Source of the DNA: Nitrospirota bacterium
GTDB taxonomy: Bacteria; Nitrospirota; Nitrospiria; JACQBW01
DNA length: 64,000 nucleotides
Assembly: GCA_016178585.1 (NCBI GenBank)
Contig: JACOTA010000013.1
Location: 3,183-67,182 of the forward strand
Reading direction: 5' to 3'
Shown here piece after piece: positions 3,351 to 61,890 of this stretch. Position 1 is the stretch's first letter, and the number at the start of each line of letters is the position of its first letter. The notes beneath the pieces are model-generated. The model had not been told where the DNA came from and ran no database searches. It worked only from the letters and a program-made list of their open reading frames with translations. The translations under genes and the position numbers were made by a program.

Positions 3351-3439
3351 TATATTCAGGGGCCGGTGCGCCCCGCCTTCGGCGGATGCTCCGATGCCCC
3401 CCGAACCCCGCGTTCCGCACCGGCTTAGCCGGTTGCTTC
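3351..3439 (-). repeat. F1 structured intercistronic element, copy 1 (pgsA|plsY)
   Basis: Conserved ends TATTCAGGGGCC ... CCCCGAACCCCGCGTTCCGCACCGGCTTAGCCGGTTGCTTC. Confidence 0.8.
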
Positions 3440-22404: not shown

Positions 22405-22495
22405 TTATTCTTTCCAAAACGAATCATTTTTCAATAAACGCATCCATCCGATCATACTGGATTCTGTGACACCCGGTCAATCACCTTTTATCCAC

Positions 22496-22632
22496 CCAAG
22501 ACCAGCGATAGACTTCGCACCCACTTATTAATCATGTCATTGCGAGCACCGAAGGGTGCGTGGCAATCTTATCGTAAAGTCTTGAGATTGCTTCACTTTG
22601 TTCGCAATGACAGCTTTCTAACTCTGTTCTTG
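22496..22632 (-). repeat. 137-bp element, copy A (inverted relative to B and C)
   Basis: Exact reverse complement of 24706-24842. Overlaps the ABC-F stop and last 4 codons. Confidence 0.9.
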
Positions 22633-24528
22633 TTCTTCTATGACTTGAAAAAATTTTTCTTTCTCCCGATAAAGTTCGGGATCGGCCAGCATCGCGGTTA
22701 ATTCCTCAATCCGTTTGTTCTTCTGGTCCAAAACCTTTTCCAGCTCTGCCATCTGGTTTTTTTTGGAATGGTTTTTTTGAAACCGATTATTTCTTAATTC
22801 GGCTTCCAGCCGTTTCTCTTCTTTGGTTTTTCGGGAAGACCGGTTCGCGTTGTCGCCGGTTTTAAGCATCGCCCCCGGTTCTCTTATTCCGGGCGAAGCC
22901 TCGCCCACGCCATTTTGACCGGCGGCCTGAAGTTCTTTTTTGTGGAGGTAATAATCATAATCTCCAACAAAGACCTCCACCTTTCCATTAGAAACTTCTA
23001 TGATTTTGTTCGCGACGGCCCGGATCAGGTGCCGATCATGGGTAATAAGGCAATAAGTTCCTGAATATTCTTTTAAGGATTCTTCAAGGACATTCATCGA
23101 TTGAATGTCAAGATGATTGGTTGGCTCATCCAAAAGCAAAAAGTTAGCAGGTTTCACCAGCATTTTGGCTAAAGCCAAACGGCTTTTTTCACCACCGCTT
23201 AAAACGGAAACTTTTTTGAAAACATCATCGCCAGTAAATAAAAACGATCCTAAAATCCCCCGCAAAAATGACACCGGTTCCATCGGGGCCACCGTGAGTA
23301 TTTCTTCCAAAATTTGGTTTTTTGGGTTTAAAAGTTCCAGCTGATGCTGGGCATAATAAGCGGTCTGGACATGGTGGCCTAACACCCGCTCTCCTTTTTG
23401 AAACGGCGTCGCCCCGGCCAAAAGCTTTAAAAGCGTCGATTTTCCCGCGCCGTTTGGACCCACAAATGCCACTTTGTCTCCTCGTTGAAGCGTTAAATTA
23501 AGACAGGGATAAATAACATTTTGGTCATACCGCTTTTCAATGTCTTTTAATTCAATGACCACTTCTCCCGACCGAATCGGTTGAGGAAATTTAAATCTCA
23601 CCTTCTTTCGTTCAGAGGCAAGCTCGATCTTGTCCATTTTTTCAAGCATTTTAACCCGGCTTTGAACCTGGCTTGCCTTACTTGCCTTTGCGCGAAACCG
23701 CTCTATAAATTTTTCAGTATCCTCTATCTTTTTTTGCTGGTTTTGATAGGCCGAAAGAAGGATCTCCTTGGCCAGCGCCTTTGCCTTTTCATACTGGTCG
23801 TAATTTCCGGTATATTCGGTGAGTTTTTTTTGATCGGCCTCAACGACTTTTGTCACAAGATTGTTCATGAAATTCCGGTCATGGGAGATTAACACGATCG
23901 AACCCTCATATTTCCTTAGGAAACCTTCAAGCCAGAGGACCGATTCCAGATCCAAATGGTTGGTCGGTTCGTCCAAAAGAAGCAGATCAGGGCCCGAAAG
24001 CAAAAGTTTAGCCAGGGCCAGCCGCATCAGCCACCCTCCGCTGAATTCCTCGGTCTTTCGATTTAAATCTCGTTCTTTAAAACTTAAACCAAATAAAATC
24101 TTCTTCGCTTCCGTCTCTAAATTGTAGCCCCCCATATTTTCAAACCTGGTTTGAAGCTCGCCATAATATTGAATTAATTTTTCAAGCTCGTCAGGGTTCG
24201 TTGTTTCTGAAATTTCTGTTTCTAAAACTTTAAGGTGGTGCTCCAAATTTTGTGCATCGCTCGAAACCGTTAACAACTCTTCCAGGACGGTTTTTCCCTT
24301 GAAATAAGTGATGTCCTGGGGAAGATATCCAATGACCGCTTTTTTGTTTCTAACGATGGTCCCGGAGTCAGGCGGTATCATCTCGGCAATCATCAGCATT
24401 AAGGTAGACTTGCCTGCTCCGTTAGGACCAATTAAAGCAATTTTATCCTGCGGCCCTATCCGGAAAGAAATATCGGCAAAAAGGGTTCTACTACCAAAAC
24501 TTTTACAAATATTATTAAGTGAAATCAA
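22618..24528 (-). CDS. ABC-F family ATPase (Uup-like, two NBDs plus C-terminal coiled coil)
   Basis: Two Walker A motifs GPNGAGKST and two ABC signatures ([24 protein letters not shown]). Charged coiled-coil tail. The last four codons and the stop lie inside a 137-bp repeat. Confidence 0.85.
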
Positions 24529-24705
24529 TTACGTACTCCATTTTTTTCCGCTGTTTATCAGATATCCCGTCCTTTTAAAAATCACCTTTTCTGCGAAAAG
24601 GCAGGCAAATTATCTTTTTCGTTAACAGGGTCCTTCTTAAACATCATGATTTTAATAAATGGTATTCTTTTTTGTTAAGCGACGGTTTATGACATGTATC
24701 AAGCC

Positions 24706-24842
24706 CAAGAACAGAGTTAGAAAGCTGTCATTGCGAACAAAGTGAAGCAATCTCAAGACTTTACGATAAGATTGCCACGCACCCTTCGGTGCTCGCAATG
24801 ACATGATTAATAAGTGGGTGCGAAGTCTATCGCTGGTCTTGG
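24706..24842 (+). repeat. 137-bp element, copy B
   Basis: Identical to RC of copy A. Nested hairpins (GTCATTGCGA...TCGCAATGAC; GCAATCT...AGATTGC; cUUCGg). Confidence 0.9.
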
Positions 24843-29146: not shown

Positions 29147-29592
29147 GAAACGCAGGGCAAGGATGGTATTTGATGGAGCCACCGATAGGGTCTGGCACAA
29201 CTCCGGAGGGAGGTACTATTTACTTCAGATTGAATAGTTGGATGACTTCCCCCTGGGTGTTCCCCGGAGTAAAACCCTCAATGCGGAGGGATGCTCAGAA
29301 TTTCTACAATCGGGTTTTCATTCCGGCTCTGGAGGGGGACGAAGCCAAGAAGGAGGCCAAAATTGAGGGAGTCGTGTGGCACTCACTCAGGCATACATTC
29401 GCTAGCCGGTTAGTCATGGCAGGGGTGGATTTAAGGACGGTCCAGGAGTTAATGGGACACAAGACGATAGAAATGACCCTGAGATATTCCCATTTAAGTC
29501 AAAGCCATCTAAACGAGGCAGTTTTAAGACTGGACCAAAAGAAGGTTCAGGAGCCGAAACCGGAGCAAACTCCAGTTCCAACCGCCACCTAA
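29131..29592 (+). pseudogene. Tyrosine recombinase (phage integrase) C-terminal fragment, chimeric
   Basis: The reading frame holds only the catalytic tail (HSLRHTFASRL...LMGHKTIEMTLRYSHL; R, H-x-x-R and Y present). N-terminal and core-binding domains are missing. The 5' portion repeats the AGQGWYLM segment of the upstream small gene. Confidence 0.65.
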
Positions 29593-29651
29593 ACCGCCAC
29601 CTGGTAAAAGAGGGAGATATTAAAAACACTCTAACCTATTGAAAAATAAAG

Positions 29652-29725
29652 TGCGCCTGGAGGGAATTGAACCCCCGACCTACAGATTCGGAATCTGCCA
29701 CTCTATCCAACTGAGCTACAGGCGC
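29652..29725 (-). tRNA. tRNA-Arg (anticodon CCG)
   Basis: Manual cloverleaf: 7-bp acceptor GCGCCTG/CAGGCGC, D arm, anticodon stem GCAGA/TCTGT with loop TTCCGAA, T loop TTCAATT, discriminator A. No encoded CCA. Confidence 0.85.
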
Positions 29726-29843
29726 ATTCAAGAAAAGTCATTTTAACAAAACTAATCCAGAAACTCTAATACCTTCAAAAACAATAAATCAAAACCTTAT
29801 CGACATTGCGGAACCATGTCGAGAGCAAGCTTGGTGACTCGCA

Positions 29844-29862
29844 CCAACTGAGCTACAGGCGC
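29844..29862 (-). other. tRNA-Arg 5' fragment (positions 1-19) within a diverged tandem copy of the tRNA upstream region
   Basis: CCAACTGAGCTACAGGCGC is identical to 29707-29725. About 78 bp of upstream flank is also duplicated at roughly 80% identity. Confidence 0.7.
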
Positions 29863-29958
29863 ATTATAGAAAAGTCTATTTTAACAGAACGAATCGAAAA
29901 ACTCTAATGCCCTTAAAAACAATAAATAAAAACCTTTTTAAAAAGTATTATAAAGGAT

Positions 29959-47985: not shown

Positions 47986-48684
47986 TCATTGGCCTCGCCT
48001 TTTTTGATATTGAAGGATCATTTCGCCAAGAATCAAATCGTCCGGAACGGTAATTTTGATATTAAAAACCGACCCTGGAAAAATTTTAACGGGGTGACCC
48101 AGTTGTTCAACAAGACCCGCATCGTCTGTCGCAGAAATCTGCCGGCTGGAAGCTTTTTCATAAGCCTCCCTTAAAAGGCTGAAACGAAAGGTTTGGGGTG
48201 TTTGAGCCTGCCATACCCCCTTCCGATCGATGGTATTTTGAATGAAACCCTGTTCGGTTTTTTTTAAAGTATCCCCAAGGGGAATACCGGCAATCGCTCC
48301 GCCGGTTTCTTTGGCCGCTTCAACAGAATTTTCAATGATCTGACACGTTACAAAAGGCCGGCAGCCGTCATGAATGACCACGAAATCGGCTGCCGGATCA
48401 ACGGCTTTCAACCCATTGAAAACAGATTCTATACGTTCTTTTCCCCCGTTGACAAACGTTAAAATCTTTTTAAAAGGAGAAGAAAGAATGATTTCCTCCT
48501 CCGCAAGTTTTCGGTCTGCTTTGGAAAGGACGACGACAATTTCATCAATGACGGGACACAGATTAAAAACAGCCAAAGTGTGATAAAGAACCGGCTTTCC
48601 TCCAAGGGAAAGGAATTGTTTCGGCAGGCCGGCATTCATCCTCGTTCCAAGACCTGCGGCCGGGATAATCGCCGCCACTCTCAA
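47986..48684 (-). CDS. ispD: 2-C-methyl-D-erythritol 4-phosphate cytidylyltransferase
   Basis: Motif AAIIPAAGLGTRM. Confidence 0.9.
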   Translation of the reverse strand: MRVAAIIPAAGLGTRMNAGLPKQFLSLGGKPVLYHTLAVFNLCPVIDEIVVVLSKADRKLAEEEIILSSPFKKILTFVNGGKERIESVFNGLKAVDPAADFVVIHDGCRPFVTCQIIENSVEAAKETGGAIAGIPLGDTLKKTEQGFIQNTIDRKGVWQAQTPQTFRFSLLREAYEKASSRQISATDDAGLVEQLGHPVKIFPGSVFNIKITVPDDLILGEMILQYQKRRGQ

Positions 48685-53541: not shown

Positions 53542-53616
53542 TATTCAGGGGCCTTCGCAAACGACGCTCAATGCCCCCGAACCCCGCGTTCCGCACTGGC
53601 AAAGCCAGTTGCTTCA
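53542..53616 (-). repeat. F1 element, copy 6a
   Basis: First unit of a tandem pair. Confidence 0.8.
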
Positions 53617-53623
53617 TCCATTC

Positions 53624-53794
53624 TATTCAGGGGCCTTCGCAAACGACACTCAATGCCCCCGAACCCCGCGTTCCACTCGGTCTAACTACGACCATTCCAA
53701 AGTCCGTCTCGGTCTAACTACGACCATTCCAAAGTCCGTCTCGGTCTAACGACGACCATTCCAAAGTCCGTCACTGGCAAAGCCAGTTGCTTCA
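53624..53794 (-). repeat. F1 element, copy 6b with three tandem 32-bp sub-modules (53678-53773)
   Basis: Second tandem unit. CGGTCTAACTACGACCATTCCAAAGTCCGTCT repeated three times. Confidence 0.8.
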
Positions 53795-60359: not shown

Positions 60360-60624
60360 CTTTATTATACCCCTTTTGCTTTCAAGTCTAGCATGGAAAC
60401 TTATCAAAAAAAGCCTCTTTAAGTCAAGTTAAATCAATGACTTATTGTAATCCTTCAGTGAAACGGGGCGATACACACGAAAGGGCCTGGTGTGACCTGA
60501 ACGGAGACTTCGGCGAAGTTTGTTGATCCCTCCATAATGTAAAGTCCAGAAATGAGGATAACTTCGTCGGCGTCGGAGAGACGGTCATTCCAGGTCCTTG
60601 AAAACCCTTGACTGAATGGTTCCC

Positions 60625-60760
60625 AAGAACAGAGTTAGAAAGCTGTCATTGCGAACAAAGTGAAGCAATCTCAAGACTTTACGATAAGATTGCCACGCAC
60701 CCTTCGGTGCTCGCAATGACATGATTAATAAGTGGGTGCGAAGTCTATCGCTGGTCTAGG
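60625..60760 (+). repeat. 137-bp element, copy C
   Basis: One mismatch to copy B. Confidence 0.9.
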
Positions 60761-60769
60761 GTTGGCATA

Positions 60770-61129
60770 TTGTTATATTATCCAATAGTTTCATTCTCCC
60801 CGGTGATTCAAATCGTGATGATTTTGAGTCTATTTAGCCTGGGAGTCTGGTGTTCTTTTTCGGTTGAAAAAGCCCTTGGGCAGAAAGACCCTGGAATTAT
60901 TGTGGTGGATGAAATCGTCGGAGTCTGGATATCCCTTTACCTCATCCCATTTCATTGGAATCTTCTGTTGGCCGCTTTTATTTTGTTTCGGTTTCTGGAT
61001 ATTAAAAAGCCATTTCTAATTGCTCAGGTTCAATCGCTAAAAGGAGGCTGGGGGGTCATGCTGGATGACTGCTTGGCAGGACTTATTACAAACCTGTTGT
61101 TGCGCCTTATTCTTTATTTCTGGCCGTAA
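60770..61129 (+). CDS. pgpA: Phosphatidylglycerophosphatase A, N-terminally truncated
   Basis: Conserved PgpA core (PGIIVVDEIVGVW...FLDIKKP...GVMLDDCLAG), but the N-terminal segment is missing. A 137-bp repeat lies immediately upstream. Confidence 0.6.
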   Translation: MLYYPIVSFSPVIQIVMILSLFSLGVWCSFSVEKALGQKDPGIIVVDEIVGVWISLYLIPFHWNLLLAAFILFRFLDIKKPFLIAQVQSLKGGWGVMLDDCLAGLITNLLLRLILYFWP

Positions 61130-61167
61130 TCGATCCGAATTAATCCTGACGGTCTCGTAAAAAGTCT

Positions 61168-61200
61168 GAGACGGATTGTGGAATGGTCGTAGTTAGACCG
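61168..61200 (-). repeat. Solo 32-bp sub-module (CGGTCTAACTACGACCATTCCACAATCCGTCT)
   Basis: Occurs outside any F1 element, downstream of pgpA. Confidence 0.6.
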
Positions 61201-61311
61201 AAAAAGTGGTTTTTTTGTCATTCCCGTGCAAACGGGAATCCAGTTTTTTCAAGTCGTTATGTTCTCCCTAGATTCCCGCTTTCGCGGGAATGACGAATTT
61301 TTACAAGACCA

Positions 61312-61890
61312 TCAATCCTTGAAGTCAACAAACCGGACATGATCATTCCACATCGATAAAAATTTTTCTCTGGCCTTCCGGGTATTAGAAGAATCAATAA
61401 TCACGTCCAAGCGTTCATCATTCAGCGTGTTGGCGCTCCAGGTTTGATTAAATGAACCGGAAGTGTTGATTTGATCGTCAATAATCACCTGTTTAATATG
61501 CATTAACCCTTCATGCCGGTTTACCTTAATCGGAATCCCGGCCTGACGCAGGGAATGAATCGCCTTACGGGTATGCTCATTTTCCAATTCCCCATGATCG
61601 GTAATAATCCGGACGTCAATCCCTTTTTTCCTGGCTCTTATCAGCATTCTGGTAATGGGTTTAGAGGTCATGTTAAAACAGGCGATGTAAATTGACTTTT
61701 CAGCGTTTTGGTATAAAGAGATCATGTGAGACTGGAGATGGTCTTCAGGCCCGTAGTAGGTTTGAATGTCGCCGGCAAAGGCCGGTTGAATGGAGAGAAA
61801 AATAAAGGCGCTGGCCAGAAGGCCGGTCAAAATCAGTGGAAGGAAAAAAGTCCAATGACAGCGGTTTGGGGCGGACGTTTTCAGGTTCAT
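61312..61890 (-). CDS. PLD-family HKD protein (Nuc-like), secreted/anchored
   Basis: Single HxK(x)4D motif (MHIKQVIIDD) and an N-terminal signal/TM. Confidence 0.65.
   Translation of the reverse strand: MNLKTSAPNRCHWTFFLPLILTGLLASAFIFLSIQPAFAGDIQTYYGPEDHLQSHMISLYQNAEKSIYIACFNMTSKPITRMLIRARKKGIDVRIITDHGELENEHTRKAIHSLRQAGIPIKVNRHEGLMHIKQVIIDDQINTSGSFNQTWSANTLNDERLDVIIDSSNTRKAREKFLSMWNDHVRFVDFKD

Follow-up and report, generated by a model that had tools for sequence, protein, structure and literature searches.

A MITE-like element and a second small insertion upstream of pgpA in a groundwater Nitrospirota genome, with gene truncations at the element's copies that are probably scaffolding errors

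Among the small mobile elements of bacteria, known MITEs include the Correia elements of Neisseria, the RUP elements of Streptococcus pneumoniae and the ERIC/IRU repeats of the enterobacteria. The 140-bp repeat that we describe here, termed E, resembles such elements in being short and non-coding, with inverted ends, a target duplication of fixed length and a strongly folding interior. It resembles them also in the placing of its near-identical copies in intergenic regions or at gene ends, in the existence of an empty site and in the rewriting of the end of a gene, in this case one encoding an ABC-F protein. Unlike the Correia elements, which duplicate TA, E is flanked by duplications of 5 bp. 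A second family that may bear on this locus is IS66, whose members have inverted repeats starting 5'-GTAA and an 8-bp target duplication (ISfinder). Both ends of a further insertion, termed O, begin with GTAA, and an 8-bp duplication flanks it, a similarity that we treat as a possible lead; unlike members of the IS66 family, O is only 177 bp long, carries no transposase and is present here in one copy.

Two further precedents concern the loss of sequence beside a repeat. The first is the deletion of adjacent DNA by insertion sequences, known for intramolecular transposition of IS1, IS26 and Tn3-type elements. The second is the local scaffolding error, a recognised problem in metagenome assembly workflows that scaffold with IDBA-UD and one for which the program ra2.py was written. 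Our analysis concerns a gene, pgpA, that appears to have lost its 5' end at the edge of a copy of E, and the choice between these two precedents is central to how that appearance should be read.

The sequence analysed, which we call the window, is a stretch of 64,000 nucleotides from the metagenome-assembled genome (MAG) of an uncultured groundwater Nitrospirota bacterium (Nitrospiria). Three sources were compared with it. Contig L058, from a relative about 90% identical, served as the empty-site reference, and its gene order is that of the window (FBPase, haem-oxygenase-like gene, 94-aa gene, pgpA, PLD). A sibling MAG, GCA_016195515.1, is 99.9% identical to the window, the relevant contig being its contig 70 (JACPZL010000070.1; loci L059, L065 and L070). 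The third source was a set of unscaffolded per-run Logan contigs. The sibling MAG belongs to BioProject PRJNA640378, in which 150-bp paired reads were assembled with MEGAHIT 1.2.9 at default parameters and then scaffolded with IDBA-UD; the project's description mentions no error-correction step, and its MAGs were dereplicated per site at 99% ANI. From NCBI naming and the accession series we infer that the window's MAG comes from PRJNA640378 too. Given dereplication per site at that threshold, the window's MAG and its sibling are probably from different sites. The judgement between artefact and deletion that follows is drawn from assembled contigs and scaffolds, rather than from reads or pre-scaffolding contigs.

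The first-pass annotation had reported a 137-bp repeat beside pgpA. The repeat is real and occurs three times in the window at 99–100% identity, but its length is 140 bp. Copy A (22495-22632, minus strand) keeps 138 of the 140 bp and lies in the last two codons of the ABC-F gene, copy B (24704-24842, plus strand) keeps 139 of 140 and lies between the ABC-F and PilZ genes, and copy C (60622-60761, plus strand) has 140 bp and is nested in the right end of O. Each of the three has a 5-bp target duplication, namely GGATA at copy A, TCAAG at copy B and TGGTT at copy C; the left TGGTT of copy C occupies 60617-60621 and the right one is lost from the window, while at the same locus of the sibling (L059) TGGTT stands on both sides of E.

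The termini of E are 11-bp inverted repeats, CCCAAGAACAG and CCCTAGACCAG (the latter as reverse complement), and comparison of CCCAAGAACAG with the reverse complement CCCAAGACCAG gives a match at 10 of 11 positions. The element is predicted to fold end to end with its termini paired (-45 kcal/mol, z = -3.3). It has no coding capacity beyond short chance ORFs that lack a Pfam match, and it matches no Rfam family, hits at the locus staying below threshold at the level of noise. Within the window, the terminal motif is confined to the copies of E, apart from a one-mismatch chance hit at 48647, and neither a cognate transposase nor an autonomous insertion sequence with E's ends was found there. 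Empty sites are available for two of the insertions: contig L058 at the pgpA locus, and the relative represented by protein P0123, which keeps the pre-insertion ABC-F C-terminus. Because it is small and non-coding and has inverted termini, a fixed duplication, multiple copies and empty sites, E is a MITE-like element on our operational definition. It is apparently new to description, as a MITE-like repeat of an uncultured Nitrospirota lineage.

Two further observations on the copies of E may be recorded. A fourth copy, 100% identical, lies at positions 177-316 of an unrelated metagenome contig (L069; OBEQ012387051.1), upstream of ORFs that, judged by eye, resemble a Phd/YefM-like antitoxin and a PIN-like toxin; beside it no target duplication could be made out. 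Within copy C, the sibling has two SNPs, at positions corresponding to 60652 and 60707, where the window's copy C agrees with copies A and B. This absence of the sibling's SNPs from the window could reflect a collapsed repeat consensus or gene conversion.

At the pgpA locus, E does not stand alone. Element O (60447-60621) is a non-coding insertion of 177 bp with the ends GTAATCCTTCAGT and ACTGAATGGTTAC; 175 bp of it are present here, and the AC that completes it is found, in the sibling, on the far side of E. L059 contains O, whereas the syntenic contig L058 does not. GACTTGTT occurs once at the empty site of L058, and in L059 GACTTATT flanks the insert on both sides; in the window the left copy of this 8-bp duplication, GACTTATT, is found at 60439-60446 and the right copy falls within a missing segment of 150 bp, described below. 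Comparison of the three loci shows that two small non-autonomous elements inserted upstream of pgpA, O first and then E into the right end of O. It likewise shows that both insertions left the pgpA coding sequence intact.

O occurs once in the window and matches no Rfam family. Its predicted fold is one end-to-end hairpin of unexceptional energy (DNA-fold z = -1.4), and on that value we dropped the idea that O is a strong palindrome. Four independent per-run contigs (L060 and L062-L064) all end at 60481, 35 nt inside O, which suggests that the left end of O is repeated elsewhere in the metagenome, though it is single-copy in the window.

The region that holds these insertions had been read differently in the first-pass annotation, which proposed that the repeat inserted into pgpA, or between two genes, and in doing so cut off the 5' end of pgpA, disrupted a second gene and gave pgpA a new 5' end. 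Part of this stands, since the empty site in L058 and the flanking direct repeats bear out the insertion of a mobile element. The supposed second gene was a minus-strand open frame without a start codon, said to be protein-like, on the side of the repeat away from pgpA. Such a frame exists (60458-60634, minus strand, 59 codons, no start codon), and its upstream stop, at 60635-60637, lies inside the repeat as described; its terminal stop, however, is at 60455-60457 and not at 60472. We found no homologue of this frame among 5.8 billion proteins, nor in the fetched loci, and it has no match in Pfam. Its length is also unexceptional: across its six frames the window has 372 stretches of 57 codons or more without a stop, a count roughly six times that of its plausible genes. 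With homologues, a domain and a length beyond chance all absent, nothing marks the frame as a protein-coding gene, and its description as protein-like has to be withdrawn. The frame is a chance open frame inside the non-coding element O, not a gene, and the disruption of a second gene falls with it.

What had been said of the truncation of pgpA, in contrast, is upheld. The frame runs from 60770 to 61129 on the plus strand, starts with TTG, encodes 119 aa and is deposited as MBI1820503.1. Against Pfam PF04608 (PgpA, phosphatidylglycerophosphatase A) it scores 122 bits (E = 2e-35), well above the curated cut-off of 28, and its match covers profile positions 34-140 of 141 and so falls short of the full-length profile. 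Over its 119 residues the product agrees closely with the family and does not differ from the protein of the sibling; unlike family members, however, it lacks the first 40 residues, including the nearly invariant G..P..PGT motif, which an alignment places in 26 of 26 full-length homologues (144–172 aa). Our search for a solved PgpA structure from which the lost segment could be judged found none. What remains of pgpA shows no decay, being 100% identical in nucleotide sequence to the 3' 386 bp of the sibling's region.

Homology to orthologues starts at about 60755-60763, which is the right edge of copy C, and the sequence derived from pgpA begins at 60762/60763; read in frame further upstream, pgpA runs into a stop inside the repeat. 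The missing 5' part is not encoded in any upstream frame, as had been claimed and as both a frame check and tblastn confirm, and searches with an intact orthologue and with its N-terminus (tblastn) did not find it elsewhere in the window, where there is also no second pgpA. Neither the 119-aa nor the 103-aa form of the truncated protein has an exact match among products on record outside the window's MAG. As a side observation, the intergenic region that precedes the truncated pgpA also holds one copy of a second repeat family, partly present in L058. This family has eight copies of about 55 nt in the window, 64–100% identical, at 3389, 11465, 20591, 41911, 53565, 53647, 53743 and 60308; its core, ATGCCCCCGAACCCCGCGTT..GCACTGGCAAAGCCAGTTGC, forms a small hairpin, and the copies look intergenic from the few neighbouring ORFs that we inspected.

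Both the coincidence of the repeat's edge with the start of pgpA homology and the open frame abutting its other side would be explained if E had inserted directly into pgpA or between two genes. Both reference loci have an intact gene. On L058, where no insert precedes it, the gene encodes P0001 (159 aa), which at 91% identity is the nearest full-length PgpA from outside the species. What speaks against direct insertion is the sibling, which carries the same insert and in which 38 bp separate E from an intact 159-aa pgpA, which was therefore not hit by the element. Direct insertion would also leave the 5' part of pgpA on the far side of E, yet it is nowhere in the window. The orphan frame, for its part, is without homologues and belongs to an insertion that L058 does not have. 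Nor does the element appear to supply pgpA with a new 5' end, since the N-terminal motif is gone, a promoter and terminator scan gave nothing above shuffled expectation, and no convincing ribosome-binding site was seen. We regard direct insertion as very improbable.

Alignment with the sibling locates the difference precisely. Positions 695-844 of L059 have no counterpart in the window, and both sides are otherwise identical, with 1 nt of ambiguity at the junction. The junction at copy C (60761/60762) thus lacks 150 bp, made up of the 38 bp in front of pgpA and 112 bases from the start of its coding sequence, and with them the first 37 codons; the loss begins right after the last base of E. 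In the window the junction reads GCTGGTCTAGGG followed by TTGGCATATTG, and in the form with an intact flank GCTGGTCTAGGG is followed by TGGTTACGACTT.

A near-perfect repeat at which other assemblies break could in principle have led the assembler to cross between copies of E, so that the flanks of copy C derive from different loci. We consider such a chimeric misjoin extremely improbable: the order FBPase, haem-oxygenase-like gene, 94-aa gene, pgpA, PLD and M16 peptidase gene is kept in both L058 and L059, and the flanks of all three copies are collinear with the sibling contig. An inversion between copies A and C, which are in inverted orientation, was also worked through on paper and rejected, its product restoring neither pgpA nor the orphan frame.

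Losses of the same kind were found at the other two copies. The ABC-F gene (22618-24528) encodes 636 aa in the window (MBI1820459.1). The sibling and three per-run contigs give 667 aa, and counted by run this intact form is encoded by per-run contigs of at least six. Two separate changes can be distinguished at its 3' end. First, insertion of E replaced the final two codons (KR*) by TQEQS*, the stop codon coming from inside E. The GGATA duplication allows the pre-insertion C-terminus to be predicted as ...LDKR, and the 96% identical relative P0123 ends in ...LNKR, in agreement with the prediction in form and in length. Second, the window's ABC-F additionally lacks 31 codons of the ABC_tran_CTD region. 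This loss amounts to 91 bp of flank and 2 bp of E, 93 bp in all, at the junction 22632/22633. No record of the 636-aa protein was found outside the window's MAG.

At copy B the window lacks 68 bp of flank and 1 bp of E, a total of 69 bp, at the junction 24842/24843. The sibling scaffold is itself incomplete at this edge, where 21 bp of flank and 1 bp of E are missing from the same starting base, and the full flank, including the second TCAAG, is present in the unscaffolded per-run contig L073.

Over about 38 kb, the window and the sibling differ by 38 SNPs and five structural differences. Three of the five are flank losses at copies of E, measuring 93 bp at copy A, 47 bp at copy B (or 69 bp when the per-run contig is the reference) and 150 bp at copy C; the other two are a 1-bp indel and a 178-bp repeat unit, and separately the repeats at 61148-61317 are not the same. 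At copies A, B and C the losses begin 2, 1 and 0 nt inside the edge of E, with junction microhomology of only 2, 0 and 1 nt, and the 2 nt at copy A are no evidence for slippage or microhomology-mediated joining. In each case the lost DNA is on the side of E with the higher coordinates, regardless of the orientation of the element; at copy A this is E's left end, at copies B and C the right one.

Two of the other regions that differ can be described further. The window has the 178-bp unit (53594-53771) and the sibling contig does not; exact 23-nt direct repeats (CACTGGCAAAGCCAGTTGCTTCA) bound the unit, which lies within a block built from tandem units of 32 nt and 82 nt. Within 61148-61317, in the interval from pgpA to the PLD gene, the window has a palindromic element (61221-61295), GTCATTCCCG...CGGGAATGAC, which has a GTCATT...AATGAC frame in common with the core hairpin of E, and five per-run contigs stop inside it, at 61271-61274. 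As the sibling has a different repeat cluster at 61148-61317, repeat content there differs between assemblies or between strains. Elsewhere in the window, in a region at about 29173-29936, a tRNA-Arg(CCG) gene (29651-29725) adjoins a 139-aa phage-integrase fragment and an ORF6N-domain gene, both taken from the sibling's gene table with coordinates estimated from locus L070, and a diverged copy of the 5' half of the tRNA lies 137 nt away (29700-29744 and 29837-29881). This tRNA-Arg region may be the remnant of an integrated element.

Our preferred explanation, to which we assign a probability of roughly 0.7, is that the missing start of pgpA is a local scaffolding error at the edge of E in the window's MAG and not a biological event. 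The largest default k of MEGAHIT is 141, and IDBA-UD, where the estimated distance between two contigs is negative, drops that many bases of the next contig without checking the overlap. At 140 bp, E would be exactly k-1 for this largest k-mer. An element of that length implies that contigs anchored in one flank would end close to the far edge of E, 0–2 nt from it, and would overlap the neighbouring contig by the length of E. If the window's MAG was made, as we assume, by the pipeline documented for its sibling, IDBA-UD would then have scaffolded these MEGAHIT contigs, and any overestimate of the overlap would cut away the unique DNA that immediately follows E in the downstream direction of the scaffold, as is seen here. 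The length of E, taken together with the use of MEGAHIT and IDBA-UD in the sibling's project, makes the truncation probably artefactual.

Two comparisons with the sibling point the same way. At 99.9% identity it carries the insert and keeps a complete pgpA of 159 aa, and its scaffold, for which MEGAHIT and IDBA-UD are documented, itself lacks 22 bp at copy B. The losses resemble the local errors described for IDBA-UD scaffolds in being small, in lying at repeats and in arising plausibly in the same workflow as that of the sibling's project; they differ in that the loss of unique sequence after a k-1 repeat is a signature we have deduced, and for which we found no documentation. Several points weigh against an artefact. 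A de Bruijn assembler alone cannot make such junctions, and the argument depends on negative distances being treated in this way by the scaffolder of IDBA-UD and on the default k list of MEGAHIT; the over-trimming must have been 22–150 nt and always in one direction; the window's MAG probably comes from another site than the sibling, which makes real strain differences more plausible; and the loss at copy C starts exactly at the terminus of E, as a mechanism linked to a transposase also predicts. We also looked for exact tandem duplications, the mirror image of this scaffolding error, and found none, only diverged or biologically bounded repeats.

The serious alternative is that the three flank losses are real deletions in the strain, begun at the ends of E, so that pgpA and the C-terminal domain of ABC-F are truly truncated. 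Deletions initiated at the element would account for the breakpoints, since at all three copies these lie 0–2 nt inside the ends of E and the element is retained, and at copy B the nested series of 0, 22 and 69 bp with one common endpoint fits recurrent loss initiated at an end. The low microhomology is compatible with end joining, losses of this kind are not seen at other repeat families within the ~38 kb, and the two MAGs, probably from different sites, have structural differences at strain level at 53594-53771 and 61148-61317. Deletions of this kind could have been made by a transposase that acts in trans and cleaves one end, the break then being resected and rejoined, or by intramolecular transposition of the adjacent-deletion type, though we think either route doubtful.

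Where the losses are found and how they are oriented, however, is hard to reconcile with this account. They occur in scaffolded MAGs only, and the unscaffolded per-run contigs compared here carry intact flanks. Among these are contigs from runs with the window's own SNP alleles (SRR12113389 and SRR12113411), which have an intact ABC-F gene and the full copy B flank, their link to the window's strain being made through few SNPs. No record of the truncated products exists outside the window's MAG. What the losses have in common is their side relative to the scaffold and not a given end of E, and the length of E exactly equals k-1 for the largest k-mer of the assembler. Three gene-damaging losses in 38 kb that have only 38 SNPs and show no other decay would be an unlikely tempo, and the window holds no transposase with matching ends. 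The losses are thus like the adjacent deletions of insertion sequences in starting at the end of an element, in keeping the element and in forming a nested series at one end, and unlike them in being very short (22–150 bp), in being confined to scaffolded assemblies, in affecting every copy on one scaffold side and in lacking an identified transposase. On balance we consider real deletions unlikely. We are equally sceptical of the broader proposal that short deletions on one side recur preferentially at the ends of E, in which case all three of its copies within the 64 kb of one natural strain would have clipped their neighbours (the 5' end of pgpA, the C-terminal domain of ABC-F and a promoter region) and the nested series at copy B would extend across populations.

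Returning to scaffolding error as the preferred reading, the deposited PgpA (MBI1820503.1, 119 aa) and ABC-F (MBI1820459.1, 636 aa) are probably truncated by such errors, and both annotations should be treated cautiously. More generally, where a gene in a scaffolded MAG is truncated against an exact repeat, the truncation should be taken for pseudogenisation, or for remodelling driven by the repeat, only if reads support it. For the biology of this lineage the outcome is modest: a MITE-like repeat and a second small insertion, with clean empty-site and target-duplication evidence, and one case, that of ABC-F, in which a repeat rewrote the last codons of a gene. If the deletion at copy C were real after all, pgpA would be a very recent pseudogene without its conserved N-terminal motif, and if the deletions as a set were true, E would be an unusually active, fast and recurrent source of gene truncation in the wild.
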